Below, one piece after another: positions 12,184 to 59,599 of a DNA stretch of 64,000 bases. This DNA comes from Clostridia bacterium. GTDB lineage: Bacteria > Bacillota > Clostridia > UMGS1883. Under the pieces are notes generated by a model. It made no database searches, was not told the origin of the DNA, and saw only the letters and a list, made by a program, of their open reading frames with translations. Within the stretch, counting starts at the first letter, position 1. Each line of letters begins with the position of its first letter. Location of the stretch: contig JAZORN010000103.1 of NCBI GenBank assembly GCA_045656645.1, positions 18,319-82,318 of the forward strand, in the 5' to 3' direction. The position numbers and the translations under genes are program-made.

Positions 12184-12461
12184 TAACCGAAACGAAGTAA
12201 TCCGTGTTCTGTTTTTTGCTTTCTGTTTTCCGCCATTACTGCGTTGAAAGCCTTGCATATACGTCAGTATATGCTGTATGTTTGCCTTGTACTGACGAAA
12301 AACAGTGTGCAAAAAATTCTGCGAACCCAAAATGCCTCAAAATTGAGATTTTTCAAGGCGGCAGGGCGAAGGAATACTGTTTCGTATTTCGAGACCGACA
12401 ACGAAGAAAAAGCCGATTTTCAGTCATTTTGGGCAGAACAGGGATTACTTCGTTTCGGTTA
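12184..12461. repeat. Family-A structured intergenic repeat, copy A1 (278 bp, perfect 20-bp terminal inverted repeats).
   Basis: TAACCGAAACGAAGTAATCC (12184-12203) is the inverted repeat of GGATTACTTCGTTTCGGTTA (12442-12461). About 90% identical to 20937-21213. Confidence 0.85.
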
Positions 12462-13557
12462 ATGTTTCACGTATGCAGTTATAAATTGTCTCGCACGCAT
12501 CTGTGATACCAATTTTTTTGCTGCACTGTTGCATTTCTTTAAGCTTATCAGTGTTTTTAAGCACTGTTCCTATTTCTTCTGCAAGCCTCTGTCCCGAAAG
12601 CTCGCTTTCAAGGACTACCTTAGCCGCACCGTTTTTTTCAAGATAACGCGCATTATATTCCTGATGATTATGCGCCACATAAGGACTTGGGATAAGAACT
12701 GCCGCCTTACCGAGTGCCGTTATCTCACTTACTGTAATTGCGCCTGCCCTACCTACTATCATATCGCAAACGCCAAAAACCTCCTCCATATTATATATAT
12801 ACGGAAGAATTTTTACATTTTTCTGCTTTTCTATGTTTACGCCTTCCTTTGAAAGCGTTTGAGAAACTTCCTCGTAATGTCTCTCACCTGTTGCCGCAAT
12901 AAGATTAAATCCATCAATGCGTCCGTTTTTCACCATATCAATAAGGGCAGCATTCATTTTTTCTGCACCAAGCGAACCGCCGAACATCAGGACAATCGGC
13001 TTTTCATCAAAATTACAGCTTGCACGAAGAACATCCCTGTCGTGCGGAGTAAAAAGGTCAGGTCTTAACGGATTTCCCGTGAGCACCATTTTCTTTGCCT
13101 TCATCATATTACGTGTTTCGTCAAAGCTGATTGCCGTTATATCTGCTTTTTGAGAAAGCATTTTTATCGCAAGTCCGGGAAAAACATTCTGTTCGTGAAT
13201 AAGTGTCGGGATTTTGAGTGATGCGGCAGAGTTTACCACCGGAGCGCATACATATCCTCCCGTGCCGATTACAACGTCAGGTTTAAACTCTTTTATAATA
13301 CGGCGTGACTCCCGTATGCTCTTTATATAGTTTATGAAAACCTTTATATTCTGGGGGCTTAAACTTCTTTTAAGTCCCATAACCTCTATAAACTTAATAT
13401 CATATCCGCATTTGGGGACAAGCTTTTTTTCAAGACCGTGCTGTGTTCCCACAAAGAGAAACTCGCTGTCCTTTTCTTTTTCCCTGATATAATTTGCTAT
13501 TGCAATAGCAGGATTTATATGCCCTGCCGTACCGCCGCCCGTGAGTAGTACACGCAT
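12445..13557 (-). CDS. murG: Undecaprenyldiphospho-muramoylpentapeptide beta-N-acetylglucosaminyltransferase MurG.
   Basis: Starts MRVLLTGGGTAGHINPA at ATG 13557 (RBS AAGGGG); the track ORF begins 22 codons earlier. The last 5 codons and the stop lie inside the right terminus of repeat A1. Confidence 0.93.
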   Translation of the reverse strand: MRVLLTGGGTAGHINPAIAIANYIREKEKDSEFLFVGTQHGLEKKLVPKCGYDIKFIEVMGLKRSLSPQNIKVFINYIKSIRESRRIIKEFKPDVVIGTGGYVCAPVVNSAASLKIPTLIHEQNVFPGLAIKMLSQKADITAISFDETRNMMKAKKMVLTGNPLRPDLFTPHDRDVLRASCNFDEKPIVLMFGGSLGAEKMNAALIDMVKNGRIDGFNLIAATGERHYEEVSQTLSKEGVNIEKQKNVKILPYIYNMEEVFGVCDMIVGRAGAITVSEITALGKAAVLIPSPYVAHNHQEYNARYLEKNGAAKVVLESELSGQRLAEEIGTVLKNTDKLKEMQQCSKKIGITDACETIYNCIRETLTETK

Positions 13558-13573
13558 ATCTTTTCTGCCCCTT

Positions 13574-14695
13574 TTACAATTTTTTGACCGAGCTTGTTCT
13601 GGAAATATTAAGCAGTATTCCAACGCCCGAAAGCATTACTATCATTGATGTTCCGCCTGCGCTGAAAAACGGAAGTTGCATTCCCGTTGAGGGAAGTATC
13701 GACAGAACAACACCGATATTTATAAGCATCTGTATACCTATTATTGACGTTATTCCAAAAGCCATATATGTACCGAAACGGTCCTTTGCATTAAGTGCAA
13801 TACTCATTCCTCTCCATACGAAAAGAACGAAAAGCCCTATTACTAGAAGTCCGCCTATAAATCCAAGCTCCTCACATACAACCGCATATATGTAGTCATT
13901 ATGTGCCTCGGGCAAATATCTGTATTTCTGCCTTGACTGGCCAAGGCCAAGACCGAAAAGCCCGCCCGAGCCTACTGCATAGAGCGACTGAATTATCTGC
14001 CAGCCTATACCCCTTTCATATGCAAACGGGTCAATAAGCGCACGAAAACGGTCAAGTCGGTAGCTTGCCGAAAATGCAATTCCTATAAAGCCCAGTACTC
14101 CAAGACCACCGAGGGCATAAAGGTATTTCATCGGAAGCCCTGCCGCAACCATCATCATTACACTGATAACGGCAAGAACAACTGCCGCAGAAAGATGACT
14201 CTGCAGCACGCATGCCGCACCAAAAAGTGCCAGTATCATTGCAGATATTCCTAAGTTTTTCATATCGTTTGTAAGGTCAGATGTCCTTTTATCAGAAAAT
14301 CTTGACGCATAGTATATTACAAGAGCAAACTTTGCAACCTCTGAGGGCTGAAAGCTTATCGGGCCGAGGGAAATCTGCCTTGTCGCACCGTGTGATGCAA
14401 AACCGATTACAGGAACTATGTACATAAGGAAAAGTGTTCCCGTAACAATAAGCTTTGACAGCTTCTTATATATATGATAATCGTAATTTGACGTAATAAA
14501 CATTAAAAAACAGCCTATTGCACTGAGGGACCCCTGCTTTAAAATAATAGAATATACATTTCCTTCCTCTAATGCTTTGGGTGAACTTGCTGAAAAGAGC
14601 ATAATCAGACCAAACAAAAGAAGAAATATTATTATCATAAGCATTACAAAGTCTACCTGACCTGACCTTGAAATTCTTTTGCCTGTGTCCTTCAT
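13574..14695 (-). CDS. ftsW: SEDS-family peptidoglycan glycosyltransferase FtsW/SpoVE.
   Basis: Polytopic protein with the motif …QPSE(V)AKF…. The likely start is MKDTGKR at 14695 (RBS GGAAGGG); the track ORF extends into the repeat leader. Confidence 0.9.
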   Translation of the reverse strand: MKDTGKRISRSGQVDFVMLMIIIFLLLFGLIMLFSASSPKALEEGNVYSIILKQGSLSAIGCFLMFITSNYDYHIYKKLSKLIVTGTLFLMYIVPVIGFASHGATRQISLGPISFQPSEVAKFALVIYYASRFSDKRTSDLTNDMKNLGISAMILALFGAACVLQSHLSAAVVLAVISVMMMVAAGLPMKYLYALGGLGVLGFIGIAFSASYRLDRFRALIDPFAYERGIGWQIIQSLYAVGSGGLFGLGLGQSRQKYRYLPEAHNDYIYAVVCEELGFIGGLLVIGLFVLFVWRGMSIALNAKDRFGTYMAFGITSIIGIQMLINIGVVLSILPSTGMQLPFFSAGGTSMIVMLSGVGILLNISRTSSVKKL

Positions 14696-14823
14696 TCTTA
14701 TAACCCTTCCTTTCACTATGTTCAAAGTATAAACCAGTAAAATAAATTCAAAATGCAAAGCATTTTGCTCCATACCTCTTCACTTTTCGCTCTTACCTCT
14801 TACCTGCCTGATTTTATTCAGGC
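14696..14823 (-). repeat. Family-D conserved leader, copy D1 (about 128 nt ending at the ftsW start codon).
   Basis: It can be aligned along its full length with 33333-33461. The distal 47 nt are identical, and the RBS-proximal TTGAACryArTGAAAGGAAkGGTTATA is shared. Confidence 0.7.
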
Positions 14824-14833
14824 TTGCTCCTCC

Positions 14834-15775
14834 TTATAATGCTAAATAGCTCACGATGCAAAGCAGTGCAGTTATAATACAAAATACCGTTACTACCTTT
14901 GTTTCTTTCCATCCGCACATTTCAAAATGATGGTGTACGGGCGCCATTTTAAATACACGTTTTTTTGTTTTCTTATAATAGCTTACCTGAATAATTACAC
15001 TGAGCGCCTCAAAAAGAAAAACAAATGCGCTGATTATAATAAAAAGCTCCAGTCCTGCACTCACGGCAACTGCGGCAATAATTCCGCCTATGAAAAGGCT
15101 ACCCGTATCGCCCATAAACACCTTTGCAGGATATGCATTATATATAAGAAATCCTAAAAGTCCGCCTGCAAGCGCACCTGAAATGATTGACGCCTCCTGA
15201 TTTACACAAAGCGTAGCACAAGAAACTGCAAAAAACAATGCTACAATCGAGCCTACACCTGATGCAAGACCGTCAAGACCGTCTGTAAGATTTGCACTGT
15301 TCGTTGTTGCAAGAAGTACAAACATTACAAAGGGAATATATAAAAATCCCATATCAAAATTTATATCAGTAAAAGGAATTCTTGTCTGTGACTTATCAAG
15401 CACTGCATATACAAAAACGGCATAAAGCACGCTTACTACAGTCTGTGCCAGAAACTTCTGCAAAGCTGTAAGTCCCTGATTTTGCTTTTTTACAACCTTT
15501 GCATAGTCGTCAATAAAGCCTATAAGACCGAACAATGCTCCACAAAGCAAAACCGCTCCGCCCTCGCTGCTGCGCACAAAAAACACAGAAGCAAGAATAC
15601 ATGAAAGAATAAAGCCTATTCCTCCCATTGTCGGTGTTCCCTGTTTCTTTTCGTGCCACTTCGGGCCGTCCTCGAGTATTGTCTGTCCGAACTTAAGCCG
15701 TCTTAAAAACGGAATGAGAAGCGGCTCGCAAAGTGCGGCAATTATGAAGCTTATTATACACGCTTTTATCCACAT
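14834..15775 (-). CDS. mraY: Phospho-N-acetylmuramoyl-pentapeptide transferase MraY.
   Basis: Contains …TPTMGG…, NLTDGLDGLA and MGDTGSL motifs. Confidence 0.95.
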   Translation of the reverse strand: MWIKACIISFIIAALCEPLLIPFLRRLKFGQTILEDGPKWHEKKQGTPTMGGIGFILSCILASVFFVRSSEGGAVLLCGALFGLIGFIDDYAKVVKKQNQGLTALQKFLAQTVVSVLYAVFVYAVLDKSQTRIPFTDINFDMGFLYIPFVMFVLLATTNSANLTDGLDGLASGVGSIVALFFAVSCATLCVNQEASIISGALAGGLLGFLIYNAYPAKVFMGDTGSLFIGGIIAAVAVSAGLELFIIISAFVFLFEALSVIIQVSYYKKTKKRVFKMAPVHHHFEMCGWKETKVVTVFCIITALLCIVSYLAL

Positions 15776-15784
15776 CGTTTATCA

Positions 15785-17215: not shown

Positions 17216-17227
17216 TTTCTACCTCCG

Positions 17228-20936: not shown

Positions 20937-21213
20937 TAACCGAAACGAAGTAATCCGGACTCTGTTTTTTGCTTTCTGTTTTCCGCCATTACTGCGTTAA
21001 AAGCCTTGCATATACGACAGTATATGCTGCATTTTTGCCTTGTACTGACGAAAAACCGTTTGCAAAAAATTCCTTGAACCCAAAATGTCTCAAAATTGAG
21101 ATTTTTCAAGGCGGCAGGGCGAAGGAATACTGTTTCGTATTTCAAGACCGACAACGAAGAAAAAGCCGATTTTCAGCCATTTTGGGCAGGTTCGGATCAC
21201 TTCGTTTCGGTTA
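20937..21213. repeat. Family-A structured intergenic repeat, copy A2.
   Basis: Same termini (TAACCGAAACGAAGTAATCC … GATCACTTCGTTTCGGTTA) and same interior as A1. It ends 4 nt from the rsmH Shine-Dalgarno sequence. Confidence 0.85.
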
Positions 21214-21488
21214 AGCACACGGGAATCGAACTCCGTATGGTTTTAAAATAGAAATTTTGCATAATACTGCAGAAAATTCTGCAAATATACGTCAGTATTA
21301 TTCTTGAATTTTCTTTGTCTTATATCAAAAGTTCTTATTTTAAAACTCTTCGACCTTAAACGCAGAGAAATTTAGCGCAATTTTGATGCGAAGGACGAAG
21401 ATAGGCTGACGCCTTTCGAGGACGACAAATTGAAAGTGTGCAAATTTATCAAGTTTAAGGCATACGGGGTTCGACTCCCGTGTGCTTA
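21214..21488. repeat. Family-C structured intergenic repeat (275 bp, ~27-bp inverted termini).
   Basis: AAGCACACGGGAATCGAACTCCGTATG (left terminus) is the near-inverted repeat of CATACGGGGTTCGACTCCCGTGTGCTT (right terminus). It abuts the mraZ stop codon (21489-21491) on one side and copy A2 on the other. Confidence 0.8.
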
Positions 21489-21923
21489 TCAGAAGCTGAT
21501 TTCCTCAAGACTTTCGGCAGCTTCTTCAACGGTCATTTCTTCCTCACTCTGAATATATTCCTGCCAACGCTGTGCATCCCAGATTTCCACACGTTTGCTG
21601 ACACCGATTATTACAACCTCTTTAGTCAGCATTGCGTGTTCACGGTGAGGGGCTGTTATAAGCACCTTACCCTGTTTATCAGGCTCCGCCTCTGCCGCAC
21701 CTGAAAGAAACATACGCTGCAAGTGACGTGCACTCTTCTGGTTTGAAGGAAGCTTCGAAAGATTTTCTGCAAGCTCCTCCCATGCATCCATAGGATATAC
21801 AAACAAGCACCCTTCAAAGCCCTTGGTGATCACAAACTGCTCGCCGAGCTGCTCACGAAACTTTGCAGGGATAATTACTCTGCCTTTAGCGTCAATATTA
21901 TGTGAGTACTCGCCAACGAACAT
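21489..21923 (-). CDS. mraZ: Transcriptional regulator MraZ.
   Basis: Starts MFVGEYSHNIDAKGRVIIPAKFR, with a second SpoVT/AbrB-like half. Confidence 0.95.
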   Translation of the reverse strand: MFVGEYSHNIDAKGRVIIPAKFREQLGEQFVITKGFEGCLFVYPMDAWEELAENLSKLPSNQKSARHLQRMFLSGAAEAEPDKQGKVLITAPHREHAMLTKEVVIIGVSKRVEIWDAQRWQEYIQSEEEMTVEEAAESLEEISF

Positions 21924-22242: not shown

Positions 22243-22300
22243 GATGCCGCAGGCAGTCTGCGACAACTTTTTAAGTAACTTCAACTAAATAATGACTATT
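22243..22300 (+). repeat. 58-nt direct repeat, copy 1 (leader duplicated upstream of tRNA-Pro).
   Basis: Matches 22561-22618 at 52 of 58 positions. It starts with GATGCCGCAGG, the same 11-mer found in the variable loop and T-stem of the tRNA-Pro gene. Confidence 0.85.
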
Positions 22301-22560
22301 TCGCCCGAAAAGATAACAGCGTAAGCGAAATCTTTTCGGAGAGGAAGAATAAACGGTTGCGTGCAGAGTTCTGCGTTAGCATAACGACGCAAAGCCTACC
22401 TTTATTCTGACGACGTAGCGACGCCTGCTTTGGGCAACACATCTGAGCGCATCCTGCGGATGATACAGCGAGGATTTGTTGGGGCAGCGGTCGACAGATG
22501 GCAAGGCAATTTATTGCCGAAGATAGATGTCGGGCACCGCAACGTGGCGGCATAGCCGAG
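22301..22560 (+). ncRNA. Unassigned, highly structured 260-nt segment co-oriented with tRNA-Pro and carrying tRNA-Pro-derived fragments. Candidate ncRNA, or a degenerate insertion-bearing tRNA copy.
   Basis: It lies between the predicted promoter and the tRNA. Several clean helices are visible: CCGAAAAGAT/ATCTTTTCGG; AGAATAAA/TTTATTCT enclosing a three-way junction TTGCGT[GCAG…CTGC][GTTA…TAAC]ACGCAA; and GGCAA/TTGCC. Positions 22415-22434 match tRNA positions ~19-37 at 19 of 20. Confidence 0.35.
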
Positions 22561-22618
22561 GATGCCGCAGGCAGTCTGCGACAATTGTTTAAAAGACTTT
22601 AACTAAATAATGACTATT
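22561..22618 (+). repeat. 58-nt direct repeat, copy 2, immediately 5' of tRNA-Pro.
   Basis: See copy 1. Confidence 0.85.
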
Positions 22619-22619
22619 A

Positions 22620-22695
22620 CGGGGTGTAGCGCAGCTGGTAGCGCGCCTGCTTTGGGAGCAGGATGCCGCAGGTTCAAGTCCTGTCACTCCGACCA
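22620..22695 (+). tRNA. tRNA-Pro (anticodon UGG), CCA encoded.
   Basis: Manual cloverleaf: acceptor CGGGGTG/CACTCCG, D-stem GCGC/GCGC, anticodon stem CCTGC/GCAGG with loop TTTGGGA, T-arm GCAGG-TTCAAGT-CCTGT, 3' ACCA. Confidence 0.95.
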
Positions 22696-28585: not shown

Positions 28586-28710
28586 ATATGTAACCTCCGT
28601 TAATTTATATAGCCGAAAAATACCGAAATTTCGTCATTTCAGGCATGTTCAGATTTTTCTCTTTCGGCGATCTGCTATATTTTACCACACAACAGAATTT
28701 TTGTAAATAG

Positions 28711-28741
28711 GGGATGTAAAAATAGGCTTTTTACATCCCCA
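28711..28741 (-). terminator. Hairpin terminator.
   Basis: GGGGATGTAAAAA-taggc-TTTTTACATCCCC. Confidence 0.7.
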
Positions 28742-28746: not shown

Positions 28747-29181
28747 TCAAAGATAACAGCGTATATCTACCGCGAGCTTTTCCTCAAGGTTTATAAGGCG
28801 TTTTGTAATATCCTTTGAAACCTCATCTGCTGCTTCGTATTTGTTAAGATATTTGTTAAGGGATTTTACACCCATATTGCATCCATCGGTCATAAGGTCT
28901 GCTATTGTGGCATCAGTTTCGTTCATTGCGAGCTTCATATTTGTTTTCATCCAGCTCATTCCCTTTGCAATTGCTGCTGGCTCTTTTCCGTCATCATTAA
29001 ATTTATCAAGAATTTCCTGAAGCTCACGGTCTAATTTTTCGTGTTCTTCCTTGCAGTCAGTAAGAATTTTTTCAAGACGATCACTTGTAACAGAGCCTAA
29101 AACATCTTCTATCGAAGACACACCCATTTTAACACCTGCATCACATTCCCTAAGAAGTTTTATTGTATCCTGTTCAATCAT
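28747..29181 (-). CDS. Hypothetical all-helical protein (~144 aa).
   Basis: ORF in the track. The likely start is MIEQDTIK at 29181 (RBS AAAGGAAG). The heptad-rich sequence suggests a four-helix bundle. I am not confident of any family assignment. Confidence 0.5.
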   Translation of the reverse strand: MIEQDTIKLLRECDAGVKMGVSSIEDVLGSVTSDRLEKILTDCKEEHEKLDRELQEILDKFNDDGKEPAAIAKGMSWMKTNMKLAMNETDATIADLMTDGCNMGVKSLNKYLNKYEAADEVSKDITKRLINLEEKLAVDIRCYL

Positions 29182-29282
29182 TGTTTTTCTTCCTTTCTTT
29201 CTCAGATACAATAATTATTCCCTTTAAATGTACGATAATTCAAAAAAGCAGTTGTAAAAAATTTACAACTGCTTTTTGCCAA

Positions 29283-33332: not shown

Positions 33333-33461
33333 AAATATAACCATTCCTTTCATTGCGTTCAAGGCAAAAACAGTATACTATAAATTCAAAATGCAAAGCA
33401 TTTTGCTCCATACCTCTTCACTTTTCTCTTTTACCTCTTCCCTGTCTGAATTTATTCAGAC
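33333..33461 (-). repeat. Family-D conserved leader, copy D2.
   Basis: See 14696-14823. The distal hairpin GTCTGA…TCAGAC differs from GCCTGA…TCAGGC in D1 by a compensatory base-pair change. Confidence 0.7.
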
Positions 33462-33499
33462 TTTTCACCCCACAGATAGTATTGTCCTTTATTTAGTTT

Positions 33500-37144: not shown

Positions 37145-37292
37145 TTTAAATCCCTCCATTTATTAGATTATACGAAAACCGAAAAAAAAAGTAAATATCC
37201 TCATAAAATAACAGTATTTTTTTGTGAAAAAAATAATTATTAGAAATTTTTTACTTTTTTATATTATTTTGGCGAATTTTTTACGGCAAAAA

Positions 37293-37334
37293 AAGGGGTG
37301 TAAAAAAACTTGTTTTTTTACACCCCCTTTTTTG
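37293..37334 (-). terminator. Long perfect hairpin terminator.
   Basis: GGGGTGTAAAAAAA-cttg-TTTTTTTACACCCC, flanked by A-runs and T-runs. Confidence 0.7.
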
Positions 37335-37588
37335 GGGGATAGGAAAAAATGCTTCAGAACGGACAAACTGAGCCAACAAAGCCCATATATGGGCTTTGTT
37401 GGGTTACCCGAAGGCGTACGTGGGTACGTCAAGAGGCGAAGTTTGTTCGTAGCAAAAAGGCTTATAAACTAAGAAAAATCGAATGAAATAAGATTTTTCA
37501 ACCAAATTCAGATGTTTTACAAACTATAAACCACCTGAATTTCGTATCTTTATCGCCTTTTTGCGGTCTGGACTTTTTTTACATCCCC
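37335..37588 (+). repeat. Family-B structured intergenic repeat, copy B1 (254 bp).
   Basis: Outer inverted termini GGGGATAGGAAAAAA… / …TTTTTTTACATCCCC. Conserved core CAGAACGGACAAACT…AGTTTGTTCGTAGCAAAAAGGC…GCCTTTTTGCGGTCTG, shared with 41652-41881 and, inverted, with 59393-59599. Confidence 0.85.
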
Positions 37589-37593
37589 ATTTG

Positions 37594-38436
37594 TCAACCG
37601 ATTATTTTTTCTTTATACTTCATTGTTGTGTTATAGCCTATATCATACATTTTCTGTATCTTGGCGGGATCTCTTTCAGTACGCTTCCAGTCTGAGGTAT
37701 CCTCCTCGGGGGCAATGAGAATAATTCTGCCTGCCTTTTCAAGTTCCAAAAGACGGTGATGCGCATCGTTATACATCTTGGTACGGTTTTCAAGTGCCTT
37801 TTTTAATTCAGGATATTTTTTGTATAAAAAGCTGCTGATACCGATTGCAGGCTCGACCTCTTTTTCATAGCTGCGTTCACGTGTGATAATGACAATCAGC
37901 TTTTCACATCCGTCATCAAGTGCTTTCTGAAAGGGGATAGAGTCAGTAATGCCACCATCCATATAAAGCTTACCGTTTATTTTGATTGGCTGGAAAAGAA
38001 GAGGGAGAGCACAGCTTGCAATAACTATCTGCCATGATTTATCCTCGCTCGTTACGGGAAGATACTCGCACTTGCCCGTTTCTATATTCGTAAGAGCCGC
38101 AATAACAGTGCATCCTGAATTATCATACGCCTCATAATCAAAAGGCAAATATTTATTGGGAAGCTCGTCAAAAACGAATTTTAAGTTGTAAAGACTGCGG
38201 TTTTTGGGGTTGAGCCAATGCCTGAGGCCCATATAACGCTTATCAGGAAGATAGTGAAGACCGATCTGAAGTCCGCGGCCACGCTGCCCCGATACATACG
38301 ATATTCCGTTGGCAACACCTGCAGATGTACCGATGAGGTAATCCGTTTTCACCCCTAAATCTGTAAGTGCATCAAGCGCCCCCACTGTAAAATATCCCCT
38401 GCTGGCACCGCCCTCAAGCACAAGTCCTGATTTCAT
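37594..38436 (-). CDS. Patatin-like phospholipase.
   Basis: Contains GGASRGYF and the GTSAG nucleophile motif. Confidence 0.88.
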   Translation of the reverse strand: MKSGLVLEGGASRGYFTVGALDALTDLGVKTDYLIGTSAGVANGISYVSGQRGRGLQIGLHYLPDKRYMGLRHWLNPKNRSLYNLKFVFDELPNKYLPFDYEAYDNSGCTVIAALTNIETGKCEYLPVTSEDKSWQIVIASCALPLLFQPIKINGKLYMDGGITDSIPFQKALDDGCEKLIVIITRERSYEKEVEPAIGISSFLYKKYPELKKALENRTKMYNDAHHRLLELEKAGRIILIAPEEDTSDWKRTERDPAKIQKMYDIGYNTTMKYKEKIIG

Positions 38437-41651: not shown

Positions 41652-41881
41652 GGGATAGGAAAAAAGGTTCAGAACGGACAAACTAAACCCCGAAGGGGCT
41701 TGCCCGAAGCTGTATGTGTATACAGCGAGAGGTGAAGTTTGTTCGTAGCAAAAAGGCTTAGTACAAAGAAAAACAGAGCGTAGTGAGGTTTTTCAACATT
41801 ACATACATAAAACTGAAAATTTGCACTTTCCTAAAGTTAATATTTCTTGCCTTTTTGCGGTCTGGGCATTTTTAACATCCC
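41652..41881 (+). repeat. Family-B structured intergenic repeat, copy B2 (230 bp), between infB and rbfA.
   Basis: It begins 1 nt from the infB stop codon (41883-41885). It has the same core as B1 but different hairpin sequences. Confidence 0.85.
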
Positions 41882-46456: not shown

Positions 46457-47197
46457 ATGCCGACAATATATCTTAGTCCCTCTACGCAGGAGGGAAATAT
46501 GTACGTTACGGGCGGAAGCGAAGAATATTATATGAATCTGATTGCAGATGCAATGGTTCCCTATCTTAGGTCAAGCGGAATACAGTATACAAGAAATACA
46601 CCCGATATGACAGCTTCAAGCTCTATTGCGCAGTCGAATATGGGCAATTACGACCTGCACCTTGCTCTCCATTCAAATGCGGCACCCGAGGGGCAATATG
46701 GGCAGGTGCGTGGTGTAGAGGTATATTATTCCCCCGGAAGTACACGGGGAAGACGTGCGGCAGACATTTTTGCACGCAATCTTAAAAGTATATATCCCGT
46801 GCCGTCCCTTGTGCGGACAATTCCCACCACCATAATCGGTGAGGTTACGCAGACACGTGCCCCTGCCGTATTTTTAGAGCTTGGTTACCACGATAATGTA
46901 GACGATGCAACGTGGGTGGAGGAAAACATACAAAGGATAGCCGCAAATTTAGTTCTTTCACTGACACAGTATTTTGGAATTCCGTTTGTAGAACCCGTTC
47001 CTCCAAGAACGGGCACAGTAAATGTTTCAAGCGGAACGCTCAATCTTCGTTCCCGTCCCAATACGTCCTCAAGGATAATTGCATCTATGCCTAATGGTGC
47101 AACTCTCAGCGTGCTCGGTCAGTGGCAGGACTGGTATGTTGTAAATTACAGAGGACTTGTGGGGTATGCCGCATCAAGGTTTGTAAATATTACGTAA
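46457..47197 (+). CDS. N-acetylmuramoyl-L-alanine amidase with a C-terminal SH3b domain.
   Basis: Amidase_3-like HLALHSNA…ELGYHDN. The C-terminus reads GTVNVSSGTLNLRSRPNTSS…DWYVVNYRGLVGYAASRFV. Confidence 0.85.
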   Translation: MPTIYLSPSTQEGNMYVTGGSEEYYMNLIADAMVPYLRSSGIQYTRNTPDMTASSSIAQSNMGNYDLHLALHSNAAPEGQYGQVRGVEVYYSPGSTRGRRAADIFARNLKSIYPVPSLVRTIPTTIIGEVTQTRAPAVFLELGYHDNVDDATWVEENIQRIAANLVLSLTQYFGIPFVEPVPPRTGTVNVSSGTLNLRSRPNTSSRIIASMPNGATLSVLGQWQDWYVVNYRGLVGYAASRFVNIT

Positions 47198-47286
47198 ATA
47201 TACTTGATAAATCTTTGTAACTGTTATATAATCAGCATATGTGGACAGAAAGTCCGTATATGCTGATTTTGCAGGGGGAAAGATAT

Positions 47287-47946
47287 ATGACCTTTTTTGT
47301 TATAGCAATTCTTATTGGATTTATATTTGTTAATTACAGTGCAAACCATATTCCGAAAACGGGACGTGATGCAGATGCATCGGGTGAAATTATTGAGGCT
47401 GTTATAGTAAACCGTGCGAAAAGCGCTGACAGAAGTGCTGTTATGAAGCTTGTACATAACAAACGTAATTTTCAGGTAAAGATGAAACCCACGGAGGCAC
47501 ATCTGTGGATAAAGGGAGACACTGTAAGAATTATTCTTTCTAAAAACACAAAAAAATACAGAGTTCTTTTTGGTGAGTATTTCAGGGAAAATGAAACGCG
47601 CATACGTGATTATGCACTGTCAATGCTTGAAAAGAGAATTAATGTGAATTTCGTTGCCGCAAAGCTTTCCAAATATACAAAAGAAAGCTTTGAAGCAATT
47701 AAAGCCTCAAAGCTTGAGTCACAGCGTATTTACACCTTTGTAACACTTATGGGAATACTTGATATATATACAGTTGTTACAGGTGTGGCAGGTGCAGTAT
47801 TTCTTATCTGGTGTGCAAAGAAAACACCGTCATTTGGTGATCTGATTGTACCGCTTTTGGTTATCGTCGTTCTTATATGGATGCTTTATAATACAAATGA
47901 AACGTGTAAGGGTATTATAAAGAAAGCCGAAAAAGAACGCAAGTAA
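47287..47946 (+). CDS. Hypothetical membrane protein (3 predicted TM segments).
   Basis: ORF in the track. The likely start is MTFFVIAIL at 47287 (RBS GGGGGAAAG). No family recognised. Confidence 0.5.
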   Translation: MTFFVIAILIGFIFVNYSANHIPKTGRDADASGEIIEAVIVNRAKSADRSAVMKLVHNKRNFQVKMKPTEAHLWIKGDTVRIILSKNTKKYRVLFGEYFRENETRIRDYALSMLEKRINVNFVAAKLSKYTKESFEAIKASKLESQRIYTFVTLMGILDIYTVVTGVAGAVFLIWCAKKTPSFGDLIVPLLVIVVLIWMLYNTNETCKGIIKKAEKERK

Positions 47947-49077
47947 TTACGTCCTTATTGGTGAAAAACGAAATTCCTCTCCGCCTTCTGTGCCGTGTGC
48001 GAGGTTATAAACATCGGTGCTTCGGCATTCAAGGAGGAAAATATCATCGTCTTTTACACAGCCGCCTCTTGTCCTTATGGGAAGTGAGGCGGTTTTTTTC
48101 ATTGCCTTTAAAACTTTGCTGCCCGTTTCATTGAAGGCGAGCGGGCGTATATATGTCGGCTCGGGAGCAGTTTTAAAGCAGTTATTTATAAGAAGATTGC
48201 AAAGAATTCTCCTTATTCTGCTTTGCGTGTAACGTCTGGTGGAAACTTCCGATACTATTTCGTCAAAGGTGTTCAGGTGTGCTGCCTTTTTAAGACGCAC
48301 GGCAAGTTCTTCATTGCAATCGGGGATAAGGCAAAGCTCCTCTGCGCTTACTGTTTTCAGGCGCAATGCAATGAAAGCATCAAAATTTTTCATAAAAAGA
48401 GGGGAGGAATCATAATTATAAAGCATATACTTGTCCGCATCCTCGCCACTTTCAATAATTGAACGCACAAACGATGCCGATGGGATTTCTTTTTCGCAGG
48501 ATTTTTCGTTATAGCCTGCCCCCATACGCTTTATTGTGACGGGTTTTATATCAGCGCGTATGGCTTTAAGCGCACGTATGTATTCTACGGCAAGAATATT
48601 GTTGGGGCTTTCAAGAAGAGTTGCGTCTGCCCCCATTTTAAAAAGTGCATAGGTGCGTGCGGCAGGAAAAGAAGCACCACGGGAAAGCTTTTCGTCAAGC
48701 GCTTTGCGAAAAGAGGGACTTTCTTCGTTTAATATATCTGCTAAAGAAGTCAGTGCGTCAATATCTCCGCACTCACTCCCAAACCACAGCTTATCTATGA
48801 CGTTGCACGCATCAAGGATTTTGACACCGCCTCTTGCAAAACCTTCGGCAGACGAAAGGGCAAAAGCGGCAGGAAGCTCCAAAACGAGGTCAACGCCGTT
48901 TTTTAGTGCGGCGCAGGCACGCTCAGCCTTGCTATATATACTGCATTCTCCTCGCTGAACAAAATTACCGCTCATTATTGCAATTACTGCGTCACTTTCT
49001 TTGCGCATATTGTCAATTAAGAGCTTATGTCCTGCGTGAAAAGGGTTAAATTCTGCAATTAAAGCACTTATTTTCAT
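47947..49077 (-). CDS. tmcAL: tRNA(Met) cytidine acetate ligase (TmcAL / YlbM, UPF0348).
   Basis: Starts MKISALIAEFNPFHAGHKLLI… and contains MSGNFVQRGE. Confidence 0.8.
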   Translation of the reverse strand: MKISALIAEFNPFHAGHKLLIDNMRKESDAVIAIMSGNFVQRGECSIYSKAERACAALKNGVDLVLELPAAFALSSAEGFARGGVKILDACNVIDKLWFGSECGDIDALTSLADILNEESPSFRKALDEKLSRGASFPAARTYALFKMGADATLLESPNNILAVEYIRALKAIRADIKPVTIKRMGAGYNEKSCEKEIPSASFVRSIIESGEDADKYMLYNYDSSPLFMKNFDAFIALRLKTVSAEELCLIPDCNEELAVRLKKAAHLNTFDEIVSEVSTRRYTQSRIRRILCNLLINNCFKTAPEPTYIRPLAFNETGSKVLKAMKKTASLPIRTRGGCVKDDDIFLLECRSTDVYNLAHGTEGGEEFRFSPIRT

Positions 49078-52210: not shown

Positions 52211-52230
52211 CCTTTGTAAAAAATTAATAT

Positions 52231-52305: not shown

Positions 52306-52311
52306 TAAAAA

Positions 52312-52344: not shown

Positions 52345-52520
52345 CAGTTATATTTGCCTGCGGCAAGTTATATTGCTACGCAGTTATATTCGGCAACGCC
52401 GAGTGATATTGTGCTTCGCACGGTTTAATGGCAAATATAATATCACTGAAACAATCAGGTTTCAATAACACTTTTGCTTTGCAAAAATATCACTCTGTAC
52501 GAAGTACAGAATATCACTTA
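52345..52520. repeat. Family-F hairpin array, left arm of a long inverted repeat.
   Basis: Seven short hairpins separated by AGTTATATT / AATATCACT spacers. It is the reverse complement of 54597-54771. Confidence 0.85.
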
Positions 52521-52565
52521 GACAAAAAAGTAGCCAAAATTAAATGTTTTATAGCCATTTTTATA

Positions 52566-52594
52566 TTGAAATTTGTTTTTTGATGGCTTATAAT
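52566..52594 (+). promoter_or_regulatory. Sigma-A promoter of the nucleotidyltransferase/kinase pair.
   Basis: TTGAAA (52566-52571), a 17-nt spacer, then TATAAT (52589-52594). Confidence 0.6.
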
Positions 52595-52639
52595 GATTAT
52601 AATAGGTGACTTTTTGAAAAATTTCAGGAGGTATGTACG

Positions 52640-54539: not shown

Positions 54540-54548
54540 AGGAAAAAA

Positions 54549-54575
54549 GGCATCTGCATTGCAGGTGCCTTTTTG
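54549..54575 (+). terminator. Rho-independent terminator after the kinase gene.
   Basis: Stem GGCATCTGC/GCAGGTGCC, followed by TTTTT. Confidence 0.7.
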
Positions 54576-54596
54576 AAAATAGTATAAAAAGTAGTT

Positions 54597-54771
54597 TTAG
54601 TGGTATTCCATCTTTGATGGAGTGATATTTTTGCAGCGCAAAAGTGTTATTGCAAACTATGTTTGCAATTATATTATATTTGCCTTTTAACTGTGCGGAG
54701 CACAATATCACTCGGCGATAGCCGAATATAACTGCGAAGCAATATAACTTGCCGTAAGGCAAATATAACTG
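54597..54771. repeat. Family-F hairpin array, right arm of the inverted repeat.
   Basis: See 52345-52520. Confidence 0.85.
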
Positions 54772-54805
54772 AAAAAAGCGTACTGAAACTTCAGTACGCT
54801 TTTTT
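54772..54805 (-). terminator. Rho-independent terminator after tRNA-Gly.
   Basis: Stem AGCGTACTGAA/TTCAGTACGCT, flanked by A6 and T6 runs. Confidence 0.75.
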
Positions 54806-54806
54806 C

Positions 54807-54881
54807 TGGAGCGGAAGACGAGATTCGAACTCGCGACGTTCACCTTGGCAAGGTGACGCTCTACCACTGAGCCACTCCCGC
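54807..54881 (-). tRNA. tRNA-Gly (anticodon GCC), CCA encoded.
   Basis: The minus strand reads GCGGGAGTGGCTCAGTGGTAGAGCGTCACCTTGCCAAGGTGAACGTCGCGAGTTCGAATCTCGTCTTCCGCTCCA, which folds into a standard cloverleaf. Confidence 0.95.
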
Positions 54882-55021
54882 ATAACGATATTAGTATAGC
54901 AGATAAAGTTTGATTTGTAAAGAGTTTTTTTAAAATTTTTTTGCGCTCTTCATTATTATTGACAATCAGGAGGCTTTGATGTAAAATATATTAGGAATTT
55001 TTTTCTTAGGAGAGAGTACGA

Positions 55022-56605
55022 ATGAGGAAAATATCTTCTGCGATATTTATGATAATGATTATGCTGGGCTTTGCCATATGCGCAGAGGCGGCAGATTACG
55101 TTTACAGTGCGTCAGTGGATGGAATGATAGAACTTCACCTTTCCCCTGATGAGGAAAGCTACAAAATAACTGATATTCCCGCCTGTTCAAAAATGAAGCT
55201 TATTAAGACGCAGCGCACGTGGGGGCTTGTTGAGTTTAAAAACAAGTGCGGTTGGATAAATCTCAGCTTTACACGTGATACGTATGATGAGGCGGCAGAG
55301 GCAACGGGTAATGACAGCACAAAAAATGTAAAGGTAAATTCAGCAGAGGACAAAGCGGTGCTTTATAATGTGCCGTCGCTTTCAGAAGTGCTCGGAAGTG
55401 AACAAAAATATGTAGTTCCAAATGATATGGTGCTTCAGATAAAGCGTGAAACGGCATCAGGCTGGGGTCTTGTATCAATGAACGGAAAATATGCGTGGAT
55501 ACAGACAAAAGAAACAAAACAATATGAAACACAGACTGAAAAGGAAACGGAAAAATACGGAATATATTATGTGTATGTGCTTTCAGACGGAGGATGCGGG
55601 CTTGAGCTTAAGGATGCCCCGCAGGGAAAAAACTTATATGCAGTAATTCCCGATTGTATAAAGCTTACAGTAAGGGAAACAAAAGGTAATTATGCGTATG
55701 TTTCCTATGACGGAATAAACGGATGGATAGACCTTCGTTATACAACACAGTCGCTTTCAAATGCACAGTCTAATGCGGGAACTTTAGTAAATGTTGAGTA
55801 TGAGGTTACACCTCTTGACGGTCTTGAAAGTCAGGATATATTAAGCGTTCCCTCAGAAAATGAGGGCGATGGCGGCTTTGTCGTCGGAAGTGTGAAAAAA
55901 GGTAGTGCAGTGTTTGTACAGAGGAGCACTTTAAACGGATGGTGCCTTGTAAATTACGGCGGAAAACTCGGATGGCTGCCGCCGGGCTCTGCTGTTCCTG
56001 CACAAACTCAGCAGACAGACATAATTACACCTTTTGGTGAGGCACGTGAAGGATATGTAAGTACAATAGAAAGTAAGGGTATGAAGCTTTATACTCTGCC
56101 GGGGGAAGAGGATGCTGTGGCAACTATTCCCGAGGGGGTACGGGTAAAGTCCATTGCTCAAAAGGACGGCTATGAATATGTATGCTGTGACTATGCCGCA
56201 GGATGGGCAAGGCCTATGCAGACAGCTCCTACGCAGGAGGAAGTGTTTACTTCCAATCAGTTAAAAAGGAAAGAATATTATCTTATAGATGATGAAACTA
56301 TGCTTATGAGTCTGCCTACATATTCTGCGGAATGTGAGAGTGAGGAACTGCTCATCTGTACGGTAGGAACATATTTTGAGGTTTCAAAGATTGTGAGCAC
56401 GGGAAAACGCAAATGGGGCTTTACACAGATAGACGGGAAGAAAGGTTTTATAAACCTTGCCTGTGCAGAGGAGACCACATCTCCGCTTGTAATAGGTGTC
56501 AGTGCACTTCTTACCATAGCAGCACTTGTTTTTGCCGTTTTAGGATTAAAAAAGATATTAAAGAAAAGAAAAGCTACTGCACAAAAAGCAGGAAAGGATG
56601 CATGA
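55022..56605 (+). CDS. Secreted, membrane-anchored protein with about six SH3b-like repeats.
   Basis: Signal peptide (…AICAEAA). Recurring …GW(G/C)LV…G(K/I)xGW(I/L)… modules. C-terminal TM segment followed by a basic tail. Confidence 0.75.
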   Translation: MRKISSAIFMIMIMLGFAICAEAADYVYSASVDGMIELHLSPDEESYKITDIPACSKMKLIKTQRTWGLVEFKNKCGWINLSFTRDTYDEAAEATGNDSTKNVKVNSAEDKAVLYNVPSLSEVLGSEQKYVVPNDMVLQIKRETASGWGLVSMNGKYAWIQTKETKQYETQTEKETEKYGIYYVYVLSDGGCGLELKDAPQGKNLYAVIPDCIKLTVRETKGNYAYVSYDGINGWIDLRYTTQSLSNAQSNAGTLVNVEYEVTPLDGLESQDILSVPSENEGDGGFVVGSVKKGSAVFVQRSTLNGWCLVNYGGKLGWLPPGSAVPAQTQQTDIITPFGEAREGYVSTIESKGMKLYTLPGEEDAVATIPEGVRVKSIAQKDGYEYVCCDYAAGWARPMQTAPTQEEVFTSNQLKRKEYYLIDDETMLMSLPTYSAECESEELLICTVGTYFEVSKIVSTGKRKWGFTQIDGKKGFINLACAEETTSPLVIGVSALLTIAALVFAVLGLKKILKKRKATAQKAGKDA

Positions 56606-57168
56606 AAATGAGAAAGAATTATGAACTTGAGGTTGCAGGTGTTAAAAGAGAGCTGCCGATGTTTGCGGTAAATGACAAAATTTCGATAGCTGCATTTATA
56701 ATTTTCGGTGATGTGGAGCTTACCGTAGCGTGTGCGGGCGAGCTTCTTAAAAAAGTGCCCGAACACGATATTATGATTACGGCAGAGGCAAAGAGTATAC
56801 CACTTATTCACGAAATGGCACGTCAGAGCGGTGTTAACGGATACGTTGTTGCCCGTAAAAAGCAGAAGGTATATATGAGTGATGTTGTGGAGGTAAGTGT
56901 TAATTCCATCACTACACAGAGCGAGCAGAAGCTCTACTTAGGCAGTGAAGATGCGCAGAAGCTTAAGGGAAAACGTGTGCTTATAGTTGATGACGTTATA
57001 AGCACAGGTGAATCGCTTTGCGCCCTTGAAAAGCTTGTTGAGGCAGCAGGCGGAAATATCGTGGGCAGGGCGGCTGTTCTTGCAGAGGGCGATGCCGCAC
57101 AAAGACCTGAGCTTACATTCCTTGAAAAACTGCCGCTTTTTGATGCTGACGGAAATATTTTGGAATAA
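56602..57168 (+). CDS. Phosphoribosyltransferase (purine/adenine PRT-like).
   Basis: PRPP-binding motif VLIVDDVISTGESL. The start ATG at 56602 overlaps the upstream stop codon (ATGA). Confidence 0.8.
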   Translation: MKMRKNYELEVAGVKRELPMFAVNDKISIAAFIIFGDVELTVACAGELLKKVPEHDIMITAEAKSIPLIHEMARQSGVNGYVVARKKQKVYMSDVVEVSVNSITTQSEQKLYLGSEDAQKLKGKRVLIVDDVISTGESLCALEKLVEAAGGNIVGRAAVLAEGDAAQRPELTFLEKLPLFDADGNILE

Positions 57169-57182
57169 ATCTTAAAAAGTGG

Positions 57183-57211
57183 TTGACAAAAACTAAAAGC
57201 AATGTTATAAT
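57183..57211 (+). promoter_or_regulatory. Consensus sigma-A promoter of infC-rpmI-rplT.
   Basis: TTGACA (57183-57188), a 17-nt spacer, then TATAAT (57206-57211). Confidence 0.65.
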
Positions 57212-57218
57212 AGCGTAG

Positions 57219-57371
57219 CAATAAAGAAGAAGTTACCGCTTCTCACCTCACGGGGTTTACTTGTGTGGTTAATAATTATGGGCGTTTTTATGATGCTTGT
57301 TTTTTGGAGCGGTAGGTTTTTCCTGCCGCTTTTGTTATGTGCGGCACAAATTTTCTTTGGAGGTGTTTTCC
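57219..57371 (+). promoter_or_regulatory. infC operon leader with an intrinsic terminator/attenuator (L20-leader-like).
   Basis: About 150-nt leader. Hairpin GCGGTAGG-ttttt-CCTGCCGC followed by TTTTGTT at 57309-57336, upstream of the infC RBS. Confidence 0.5.
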
Positions 57372-57881
57372 ATTAGCAAGGAAATGATGATTAACGAAGA
57401 AATCAGGGATAGTGAGGTCAGGGTAATAGACAGCGACGGAAGTCAGCTTGGTATTATGCCTACAGGCGATGCGCTTGATGCCGCTATAAAGAGAAATCTT
57501 GATTTGGTGAAGATTTCACCTAATGCAAATCCCCCCGTATGTAAAATTATGGATTACGGTAAATATCGTTTTGAGCTTGCTAAAAAGGAGAAGGAAAACC
57601 GCAAGAATCAAAAGGTTGTTAACCTTAAAGAGGTACGCCTTTCACCCTCAATTGACAACCACGATTTTGAGACGAAGCTTAAAAATGCCTGCAAATTCCT
57701 TAAAAACGGGGATAAGGTAAAGGTTAGTGTTCGTTTCCGTGGCCGTGAAATACATCACGCATCAATCGGGGAGGAAATTCTTGACCGTTTTGTAAAGGGT
57801 GCGGAGGAATTCGGCACCGTTGACAAAAAAGCGAAGCTTGAGGGAAAGAATATGGCGATTACAATTTCGCCCAAAAACTGA
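57372..57881 (+). CDS. infC: Translation initiation factor IF-3, probable ATT start codon.
   Basis: GGAGG (57359-57363), then 8 nt, then ATT at 57372. The product reads (M)SKEMMINEEIRDSEVRVIDSDG…. The track ORF's upstream extension has no RBS. Confidence 0.85.
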   Translation: MSKEMMINEEIRDSEVRVIDSDGSQLGIMPTGDALDAAIKRNLDLVKISPNANPPVCKIMDYGKYRFELAKKEKENRKNQKVVNLKEVRLSPSIDNHDFETKLKNACKFLKNGDKVKVSVRFRGREIHHASIGEEILDRFVKGAEEFGTVDKKAKLEGKNMAITISPKN

Positions 57882-57935
57882 TTATCGGCTAACAGAAGTT
57901 AGTTTAGATATATACACATTGAGAGGAGAGATATT

Positions 57936-58133
57936 ATGCCTAAAATAAAGACACACAGAGCCGCTGCGAAGCGTTTCAGTCTTACAAAGTCAGGTAAGGT
58001 AAAAAGAGCGAAGGCTTTCAAGAGCCACATTCTCACAAAGAAGGACACTAAGAGAAAGAGAAGACTGAGAAAGGGCGCCCTTGCAGACGTTACAAACGCA
58101 AAAGTTATAAAGAAGCTTATACCTTATAAATAA
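57936..58133 (+). CDS. rpmI: 50S ribosomal protein L35.
   Basis: Starts [14 protein letters not shown]. Confidence 0.96.
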
Positions 58134-58152
58134 GAATTAGGAGGACTAAAAA

Positions 58153-58506
58153 ATGGCTCGAGTTAAGGGTGCACTCAGCACCAGAAAAAGACATAAAAAA
58201 ATATTGAAGCTTGCTAAAGGCTACAGAGGTGGCAAGTCCAAGCTTTACAGAATTGCCAATCAGGCAGTTATGAAATCACTTTCTTACGCATATGTTGGAA
58301 GAAAGCTCAAGAAGAGAGATTTCCGTTCTCTCTGGATTACAAGAATCAGTGCCGCTTGTAAGATGAATGATATCAACTATTCACGTTTTATGAACGGTCT
58401 GAAGAAGGCAAACATCGAAATCAACAGAAAGATGCTTTCAGAAATCGCTATAAACGATCCTGCAGCATTTACACAGCTTGTTGAAACTGCAAAAAGCAAT
58501 CTTTAA
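58153..58506 (+). CDS. rplT: 50S ribosomal protein L20.
   Basis: Starts [26 protein letters not shown]. Confidence 0.96.
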
Positions 58507-58565
58507 TTTAAAAAACCGTTTCCGCACATACGCGGGAGCGGTTTTTGAGTAAATTGGATTTGGTG

Positions 58566-59348
58566 ATGAGGACTATGGTTATTACAAGCCGTGACAATAA
58601 AATATTTAAGCTTGCAAGCCGTCTTAAAAGTGCAAGAGGCAGAAACGAGGAAAAGCTCTTTCTTATCGAGGGGGCACGAAGTGTTCGTGATGCCTACGAT
58701 AAGGGGGCAGATTTTCACTGCATAATTTTATCTGAAAATGCGCAGTTGCAGTTTAAGGCAGATTGTCCGATTTATACCTTTGCGCCCAAGCTTTTCGGGG
58801 AAATTTCTGAGACGGTGACACCGCAGGGTATTATAGCTGTCTGCCGTATGAGAAAGTGCAGTTTAGAGGACATTCTTGCGAAAAACAGTGACCTTGTAAT
58901 ACTGTGTGAGGCTCTGCAGGACCCGGGAAATATAGGCACAATAATACGAACTGCACACGCAGCATTCTGCGGCGGCGTAATCCTTAGTAAGGGATGCTGT
59001 GATTTATATAATCCAAAAATAGTACGTGCGACTATGTCAGGTATGTTTTCAGTGCCCGTTGTGCAGGGGATAAGCGCAAAGGATGCAGTGGAAACATTTT
59101 CAAAAAATGGCTATGCTGCTGTTGCAGGTGCACTCACAGAAAAATGCGTTGACCTTTATGATGCAGATTTAAAGGGAAAGCATCTTATAATAATCGGTAA
59201 CGAGGGAAACGGTGTTACAAAGGAAACCCTTTCTATGTGTGACAAGGTGGTTAAAATACCTATGCATCCCGATGCAGAAAGCCTTAACGCTGCAGTTGCA
59301 GGCAGCGTAATGATGTATGAACATTACCGCCAAAACACAAAAAAATAA
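58566..59348 (+). CDS. TrmH/SpoU-family RNA 2'-O-methyltransferase.
   Basis: Contains DPGNIGTIIRTA, …IIGNEGNGV… and SLNAAVAGSV. The start is uncertain (ATG at 58566 or 58575); the track ORF begins at 58545, inside the rplT terminator. Confidence 0.85.
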   Translation: MRTMVITSRDNKIFKLASRLKSARGRNEEKLFLIEGARSVRDAYDKGADFHCIILSENAQLQFKADCPIYTFAPKLFGEISETVTPQGIIAVCRMRKCSLEDILAKNSDLVILCEALQDPGNIGTIIRTAHAAFCGGVILSKGCCDLYNPKIVRATMSGMFSVPVVQGISAKDAVETFSKNGYAAVAGALTEKCVDLYDADLKGKHLIIIGNEGNGVTKETLSMCDKVVKIPMHPDAESLNAAVAGSVMMYEHYRQNTKK

Positions 59349-59392
59349 ATTTACTCTTTACAAACTGCAAATTTTAGTGTAAGTTATTATAA

Positions 59393-59599
59393 GGGCTGCG
59401 ATAAAATGCACAGACCGCATAAAGCATAGAAAAGTTTATATAAAGGCGCTTAATGAAATAAAGAAGCAAAGTAAATTCAAGGTAAAAATGCATTATGCTA
59501 CGAACAAACTTCGCCTCTCGACGTACCATCGTACGCCTTCGGGTAACCCAAGCTGCGCTTGGCTCAGTTTGTCCGTTCTGCACTATTTTCTCTTCGCCC
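59393..59599 (-). repeat. Family-B structured intergenic repeat, copy B3 (207 bp, inverted orientation).
   Basis: The reverse complement contains CAGAACGGACAAACTGAGCC…CCCGAAGGCGTACGATGGTACGTCGAGAGGCGAAGTTTGTTCGTAGC. Confidence 0.8.

Follow-up and report, generated by a model that had tools for sequence, protein, structure and literature searches.

Two families of small inverted-repeat elements, probably mobile, in gene-to-gene spacers of a gut Clostridia genome

The window analysed here, 64,000 nucleotides (nt) of contig JAZORN010000103.1 from a Clostridia bacterium, carries six copies of short repeats, designated A, B and C, in the spacers between genes. Their positions had been given in an original prediction made from the sequence alone, and repeat finding together with pattern searches recovered all six copies at those places. 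A1 (12184-12462, plus strand), an element with 37-nt inverted arms, occupies the murG-murA spacer (nhmmer E 3.7e-59), and A2 (20937-21213, plus strand) is 94% identical to it across 253 nt. The divergent element C (21212-21488, plus strand), with 56-nt inverted arms, abuts A2 via a TA that is common to both, and its terminus at 21488 stands flush against the mraZ stop codon (21489-21491). B1 (37335-37588, plus strand) lies between the stop codon of a patatin gene and a terminator-like hairpin, B2 (41652-41881, plus strand) in the infB-rbfA spacer, and B3 (59393-59599, minus strand), which is shorter and more diverged, between a SpoU/TrmH-family gene and dprA. A Pfam check agreed with the names given earlier to the flanking genes, namely MurG, MurA, RsmH, MraZ, IF-2, RbfA, a patatin-like protein and a SpoU/TrmH-family methylase. 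Exact-protein look-ups returned no record identical to the MraZ, the AsnC-type regulator or the SpoU-family protein of the window.

Reading of the sequence also bore out that the insertion points lie next to stop codons. The murG stop (12445-12447) falls within the right terminal repeat of A1, which supplies the final codons and the stop of this gene, the last five codons being rewritten. Among the B copies, the distance to the stop codon is 1 nt for B2 (infB), 5 nt for B1 (patatin) and 44 nt for B3 (SpoU/TrmH). Within the window, all six strands carrying the conserved CGAAGG motif (motif strands) are antisense to the flanking genes, as had been observed before. Every element has long inverted ends and folds far above the level of shuffled sequence on either strand, with z-scores of -8 to -10. 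Elements of both families together measure 210-293 nt and have no coding capacity, as the open reading frames (ORFs) within them are short and lack conservation. For B, a small protein was considered, based on an AGGA-N6-ATG start in some copies, and rejected, since the ATG is often missing and length changes of hairpin 1 break any frame. No Rfam family matched any of the six copies at gathering thresholds, searches with A1 and B1 at E up to 10 gave chance-level matches only, and a literature search for descriptions of A/C or B elements found none.

A and C can be aligned end to end although their terminal sequences are unrelated, which places them, as judged by this alignment, in one superfamily (A/C). 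The apex pattern common to A and C was scanned on one-genome-per-species contigs and yielded 115 stretches, mostly from metagenome-assembled genomes (MAGs) of gut Clostridia and Oscillospiraceae. Single MAGs contributed many of these stretches, and many were located at the ends of contigs. A profile built on the A/C alignment gave 92 matches. The full-length set comprises 37 copies of 272-293 nt (typically ~275) with near-perfect terminal inverted repeats of ~26 bp. TA flanks the element at both ends in ~27 of the 37 copies, and nearly all others have TA at one end. The predicted fold is three-armed, shows compensatory change in 34 of 54 pairs and is symmetrical between strands: the motif strand is the more stable one in 17/37 copies, the mean folding energy is -104.7 kcal/mol for the motif strand and -104.7 kcal/mol for the other, and G-T pairs and A-C mismatches in the terminal stems are about balanced (108 vs 64). 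In at least 14 A/C copies, the stop codon of the adjacent gene, TAG or TAA, is made up by the TA of the flank and the initial base (G or A) of the element. Insertion into the TA of a stop codon thus rebuilds the stop and leaves the protein unchanged, so that A/C copies survive inside essential operons.

Comparison with a close relative marks such copies as insertions. On contig L001, whose MraZ is 98% identical to that of the window, the mraZ-rsmH gap measures 15 nt vs 568 nt in the window, and A2 and C are absent; the empty site reads CTCCTCC-TTA-TCAG and the filled one ..TA[A2]TA[C]TA-TCAG. At the A1 site, this contig carries instead a relic of 28 nt (9575-9605) that still resembles both A ends. 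The five-residue tail of MurG reads LTKTK in L001 compared with the A1-encoded LTETK in the window, and MurG of more distant relatives ends five residues earlier. The L001 segment has the appearance of an A element lost by deletion, with part of the protein C-terminus left behind. Together with an adjacent TTAA, which is also present in the window, the relic ends murG with TTATTTCGTTTTAGTTAA, a sequence near the A right end TTACTTCGTTTCGGTTAA.

Family B elements are 210-285 nt long and bounded by imperfect terminal repeats, GGGGATAGGAAAAAA... and ...TTTTTTTACATCCCC, with weaker similarity reaching out to ~34 nt. A metagenome scan added ~75 B copies, and de-duplication of the full-length copies left ~40 sequences. 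Along the host gene, the stop codon is followed first by 0-8 A-rich bases and then by B, after which come a few A-rich bases, a hairpin and a T-run. On the motif strand of B, T accounts for 56% of either flank, and a strong hairpin within 50 nt was found in the 5' flank of 19/27 copies vs 1/27 for the 3' flank. It is always the motif strand of B that continues the T-rich strand of the target. We conclude that B enters the T-rich sequence next to terminator hairpins in such a way that its motif strand extends the T-rich one. As intrinsic terminators start a few bases past stop codons, and the T-rich tract of these compact genomes almost reaches the stop, an element inserted in this manner is wedged between stop and hairpin and has a motif strand that is antisense to the gene. 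B is not flanked by a fixed word; flush repeats at its ends are variable and T-rich. Flush direct repeats of at least 6 nt were present in 7/29 copies compared with 1.2 expected, a number reached in 0/2000 permutations, and the clearest cases, 7 nt long, are those of L151, L188, L183, L210 and L174, with no such repeats visible in the three B copies of the window. There is hence statistical evidence that younger B copies carry direct repeats of ~7 bp, which we read as target duplications.

In contrast to the symmetrical A/C fold, the fold of B is a property of one strand. The motif strand is the more stable one in 37/37 copies, with a mean folding energy of -79.7 compared with -68.3 kcal/mol for the other strand. 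In the consensus structure 97.9% of cells are paired, compensatory change occurs in 17/42 pairs, a value reached by 0/500 shuffles, and 125 G-T pairs at ~19 pair positions stand against 7 A-C mismatches at ~5. This strand-specific fold implies that the motif strand is single-stranded at some stage, as RNA or as DNA. Most B copies further contain an internal A5-hairpin-U5 terminator-like unit ~170 nt from their 5' end. A promoter scan revealed no consistent or conserved promoter in or before B, and a promoter composed of the upstream hairpin and the B 5' end was dismissed, as the spacing read from the sequences varies between 11 and 24 nt.

Presence of B also differs between closely related strains. 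Among strains with identical RbfA, the infB-rbfA spacer is empty in L123, occupied by B2 in the window and filled with an unrelated insert in L121, L122 and L124; this spacer is an insertion hot spot. The unrelated insert (L121 735-865, also in L122 and L124) is a palindromic element of ~90 nt, AATGCGAAATGCGGAATGCGAAAT...ACTTCGAATTTCGAACTTCAAACTTCGAATT, in the place of B2. At the B1 locus (window 37160-37600), the stop codon in contig L239 forms part of a terminator hairpin (1395-1440), and an MgsA-like gene in convergent orientation comes next; in the window, B1, a small hairpin and the gene of the AsnC-type regulator take this place. An ordinary bidirectional terminator is found at this site in a relative with 90% patatin identity.

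All three types had been proposed to contain one motif, GAAGG, a short hairpin and then YRAGRNNGA. In A1 the apical motif (12366-12398, plus strand) consists of CGAAGG, a 7-bp hairpin and UUUCGAG..CGACAA, and it recurs at 21119-21151 in A2 and at 21388-21425 in C. The corresponding motif of B1 (37408-37439, plus strand) reads CCCGAAGG, hairpin, UCAAGAGGCGA, and those of B2 and B3 lie at ~41704-41735 and at 59511-59542 (minus strand). Between A and C the motif stands as part of a full-length homology, but for B the proposal narrows to a local resemblance of 26 nt, CGAAGG-hairpin-UCRAG. Its literal form YRAGRNNGA does not hold for B, where three bases, not two, precede the final GA, and the pattern also matches two unrelated sites. 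Likewise, the notion of a single family with three relatives had to be given up: the profiles do not cross-match, with no match of the A/C profile at the B loci in the window up to E=100 and none of the B profile at A/C copies up to E=10, and strand symmetry and polarity differ. On these profile comparisons, B is a second family without detectable overall homology to A/C. A covariance model built from the A/C apex alone nevertheless ranked B3 fourth and B1 seventh in the window, in register over 26 nt, with scores of 11.2 and 10.2 bits (E 0.6 and 1.2), and missed B2. The module is the best-conserved interior part in each family, and the probability of its placement at that spot by chance is ~1 in 1000, a rough post-hoc estimate. 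It is absent from one A/C subfamily, and in the B copy of L021 ordinary base pairs replace the internal loop of the motif. We read the module, from these alignments, as a real but short local resemblance and see no evidence of common descent. Checked by eye, none of the self-cleaving hammerhead, twister, pistol and hatchet ribozymes fits; a k-turn was likewise discarded, as G-A and A-G pairs are missing at the k-turn positions of the GAA/GA loop inside the shared motif.

The antisense orientation of all six motif strands had been taken as a possible rule, which is general for B but not for A/C. Among 42 non-redundant full-length A/C copies in other genomes, 11 have two flanking genes encoded on the motif strand and 11 have two on the other strand, showing that A/C orientation relative to genes is random. 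For B, the gene called on the 3' side is on the opposite strand, with its stop facing B, in 41/45 copies, about ten of the 45 rows being one locus that recurs in different samples, and in nearly all of these 41 copies the stop-to-B distance is -16 to +27 nt. Genes were called as simple ORFs and these counts are approximate, but the contrast between A/C and B is large. The other neighbour of B is either the next gene of the operon or a convergent gene. The agreement of all six copies in the window thus results from three B copies following the B rule and from three A/C copies whose agreement is due to chance (1 in 8). Strand-specific insertion, one of the two explanations offered for this agreement, is a fair description of B and does not apply to A/C, given the 11:11 distribution in other genomes.

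Orientation relative to replication was approached via GC skew. In the window, skew changes sign at ~48 kb together with gene strand, and each of the six motif strands coincides with the one of negative skew. At other loci, the motif strand has negative local skew in 10/14 B copies and in 12/24 A/C copies, local skew being a weak proxy that is confounded by gene strand. For B, the comparison of 41/45 by gene with 10/14 by skew makes the gene or the terminator the better predictor. The region ~47000-48000, where GC skew and gene strand flip and cumulative skew reaches its minimum at ~48 kb, has no dnaA nearby, and pta-ackA lies at 49-51 kb; the flip could mark a replication origin or merely a change of gene strand.

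Copies of the two families adjoin one another or are nested in several unrelated MAGs (L020, L021, L024, L049, L010, L196, L203 and L224), and A/C elements inside the apical motif region of B were seen in two independent arrangements. Both families decay to short hairpins that consist of the two terminal repeats only, and L196 carries an internally deleted B of 63 nt. Stray B ends elsewhere belong to internally deleted or nested copies. Contig L238, classed as viral, holds at 1040-1320 a tandem of an incomplete B right end and, directly behind it, a full B, whose 3' end overlaps the TAG stop of spoIVA. In the window, an A/C-type relic at 28611-28668 (plus strand) comprises the right end only (model positions 217-274; nhmmer E 1.4e-6). 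Three small hairpins in the window have arms, TGTAAAAA...TTTTTACA, that equal the B terminal repeat and stand directly past stop codons. The first, GGGGATGTAAAAA..TTTTTACATCCCC at 28712-28741, lies 5 nt past the stop of ORF 28747-29211, the second, GGGGTGTAAAAAAAC..GTTTTTTTACACCCC at 37295-37326, is similar to the terminal sequence of B, looks like a terminator on either strand and stands just 5' of B1 on the B strand, and another of the same type as that at 28712-28741 follows ORF 60728-62812 at 62838-62870. Hairpins of the B-terminal type stand beside many B copies in general. Such small hairpins may be B-type elements reduced to their two ends, which would now function like terminators and attract further B insertions.

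Taken together, the six copies are likely to represent two separate families of small non-autonomous mobile elements bounded by inverted repeats, resembling the miniature transposable elements with inverted repeats known as MITEs, of an uncultured gut Clostridia lineage. A/C would be moved in trans by a TA-cutting transposase of the IS630/Tc1-mariner type, and B by a transposase making staggered cuts. Terminal inverted repeats combined with TA flanks in A/C, or with flush repeats of ~7 bp in B, argue for staggered cutting of a double-stranded target rather than for single-strand insertion. A full-length insertion sequence with the same ends was found neither in 1.6 Mb of loci nor in annotated plasmids, and a search for paired B ends 0.6-4 kb apart gave nothing convincing.

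Several observations weigh against this transposition reading. No autonomous element or transposase with matching ends is present among the 20 window ORFs scanned, clustering of ORFs beside 80 A/C-bearing loci gave no recurrent family except AraC-like and ABC-ATPase paralogues, and distant blastn searches of B1 and A1 against annotated plasmids returned nothing useful. About one-quarter of the A/C copies lack the TA flank on one side. Compared with its empty allele, B2 is flanked by a repeat of TAA only or by none, and for B1 the comparison with L239, whose patatin is 98% identical, meets a break in gene order and offers no clean empty site, since terminator and downstream genes of L239 differ. 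In ordinary MITEs the ends are conserved and the interior drifts. Here, by contrast, the ends differ widely among subfamilies, and the interior unpaired motifs and the architecture are kept with many compensatory changes; a transposase model does not predict a conserved interior beside divergent ends. Nor would a transposase acting on double-stranded DNA be expected to yield the strand-specific fold or the strict polarity of B.

These last features of B are what movement as single-stranded DNA would account for, in which a Y1/HUH enzyme, as in derivatives of IS200/IS605 or in REP/REPIN-RAYT systems, inserts the element strand-specifically at replication forks. Such a mechanism had been put forward in the original prediction, and the fold kept on one strand of B (125 G-T vs 7 A-C; 37/37 copies), its strict polarity and adjacency to hairpins, and the location of all six motif strands on the negative-skew strand on both sides of the switch at ~48 kb would suit it. 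We nonetheless consider it very unlikely, as both families have terminal inverted repeats and are flanked by TA (A/C) or by direct repeats of ~7 bp (B), features that IS200/IS605 elements lack. A/C moreover shows neither strand asymmetry nor orientation bias, with negative local skew in 12/24 copies only, B tracks the neighbouring gene (41/45) more closely than GC skew (10/14), and no Y1 gene occurs among the 20 window ORFs scanned, nor any recurring neighbour gene beside A/C. Hardly any credence can be given to spread of B via an RNA intermediate that targets intrinsic terminators in the manner of class C group II introns. The position of B directly 3' of a hairpin and T-run on its own strand (19/27) and its RNA-like, strand-specific fold are what such a route would produce, but 210-285 nt is far too small for a group II ribozyme, a GUGYG 5' end is missing from B when inspected by eye against intron features, and no Rfam intron model matched the six copies (gathering thresholds) or B1 (E up to 10). 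Terminal inverted repeats and flanking direct repeats of B are likewise at odds with this route, and neither a reverse transcriptase among the 20 window ORFs scanned nor a recurrent neighbour gene beside A/C was found.

Rather than a mobile element in the first place, B, and perhaps A/C, might chiefly be a functional RNA, an antisense or 3'-end small RNA or a terminator module derived from the motif strand that is spread by transposition, with the CGAAGG-hairpin-UCRAG module serving as a protein-binding site. Strong covariation, tolerance of G-U pairs on one strand only in B, the location of the most conserved interior bases of both families in unpaired positions around the apical motif, and the A5-hairpin-U5 unit inside most B copies would fit such a role; the B motif strand, a large hairpin followed by a U-rich run, could stop antisense transcription. 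Yet we regard this explanation as unlikely: it meets no conserved promoter, the upstream hairpin being spaced at 11-24 nt, and no Rfam family match, presence or absence varies among strains with identical neighbouring proteins, the motif is absent from one A/C subfamily, and its loop is replaced by pairs in B of L021. For A/C in particular, random orientation, strand symmetry and variable presence between close strains lend no support to the function within, or antisense to, the operon transcript that had been envisaged; B may have such a function. Similarly doubtful, to our estimate, is the possibility that B is a mobile unit built around a ~110-nt fold selected on one strand and delivered with fixed polarity into the oligo-T of terminators, with the CGAAGG-hairpin-UCRAG module as docking site for a mobilising or host factor in common with A/C. 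If true, this would constitute a mobility system that depends on structure and targets terminators, for which no bacterial example has yet been described.

Among known elements, the two families come closest to pneumococcal RUP and SPRITE and are new as families, though the type of element is an ordinary one. RUP/IS630-type MITE families have TA at both ends, and the Correia elements of Neisseria and plant Stowaway are comparable. RUP/IS630-type MITEs measure 100-160 nt, compared with ~275 nt and a conserved three-armed structure in A/C, and differ further in that A/C ends vary between subfamilies with the interior fixed and that an IS630-like partner was not found. We know of no description of stop rebuilding from TA plus a purine for these families. 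Like A/C, RUP/IS630-type MITEs are small, non-coding and multi-copy, possess terminal inverted repeats, form a hairpin from the whole element and reside in intergenic regions and inside operons (PMC3049150). RUP, BOX and SPRITE of pneumococci form clusters, are found inserted in each other and occur in excess between convergent genes; the ends of RUP are IS630-like, BOX has a modular build, and SPRITE resembles a terminator and is located very close to gene 3' ends (PMC3049150, PMC10969869). SPRITE further resembles B in that it is found near gene 3' ends and between convergent genes, has no known partner transposase and was proposed to be co-opted as terminator (PMC3049150). B differs from SPRITE by its larger size, long imperfect terminal repeats, a covarying conserved domain of 110 nt, a measured strand-specific fold and a near-absolute polarity relative to stop codon and hairpin. 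Target duplications of ~7 bp have statistical evidence in B, and none could be established for SPRITE.

REP/REPIN-RAYT and IS200/IS605-derived palindromic elements are similar in forming hairpin repeats downstream of genes, function strand-specifically and are biased in orientation relative to replication. Unlike A/C and B, which have both terminal inverted repeats and target duplication, they have neither, and their insertion site lies next to a short motif that is fixed. In class C group II introns, insertion occurs in one orientation, immediately past the hairpin of an intrinsic terminator. B takes the same position after a terminator hairpin (19/27), but is much smaller, is devoid of ribozyme domains and has inverted repeats and target duplications. 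A further lead concerns Tn3-derived inverted-repeat miniature elements (TIMEs): the B ends span ~35-40 nt, start with GGGG and contain TCAGAACGGACAAAC, resembling TCAGTGGAACGAAAAC in the Tn3 end, a likeness that may serve as a lead only. The 5-bp duplications of the Tn3 family do not fit the 7 nt of the clearest B copies.

The window contains other repeats and structured sequences. Long inverted repeats at 52361-52495 and 54620-54754, 87-97% complementary and composed of GTTATATT/GTGATATT-type units, bracket genes for a nucleotidyl transferase and an APH-type phosphotransferase, with tRNA-Arg(cct) and tRNA-Gly(gcc) outside; the right repeat (54620-54754) matches the Rfam Gut-1 RNA at 54700-54771 (51.8 bits). 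An 84-nt direct repeat with 93% identity occurs at 14742-14825 and 33380-33463, one copy being in the ftsW-mraY spacer, and is a further repeat family inside the cell-wall operon. A 61-nt direct repeat of 89% identity (22243-22303 and 22561-22621) lies beside tRNA-Pro (22620-22695). At 57218-57343, Rfam identifies the leader of ribosomal protein L20 (66.8 bits), which fits a genome of Firmicutes type.

These findings leave the general picture of bacterial small repeats unchanged. For the genomes concerned, the repeats are of practical relevance, as they break assemblies of gut Clostridia MAGs, where many copies stand at contig ends, and alter gene ends, as A1 does in murG; models of both families would improve annotation. 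A/C elements illustrate a neat route of persistence in essential operons, of which mraZ-rsmH, murG-murA and infB-rbfA are examples, via the TA of stop codons, and B provides a clean natural data set on the terminator polarity of an inverted-repeat element combined with a fold kept on one strand.

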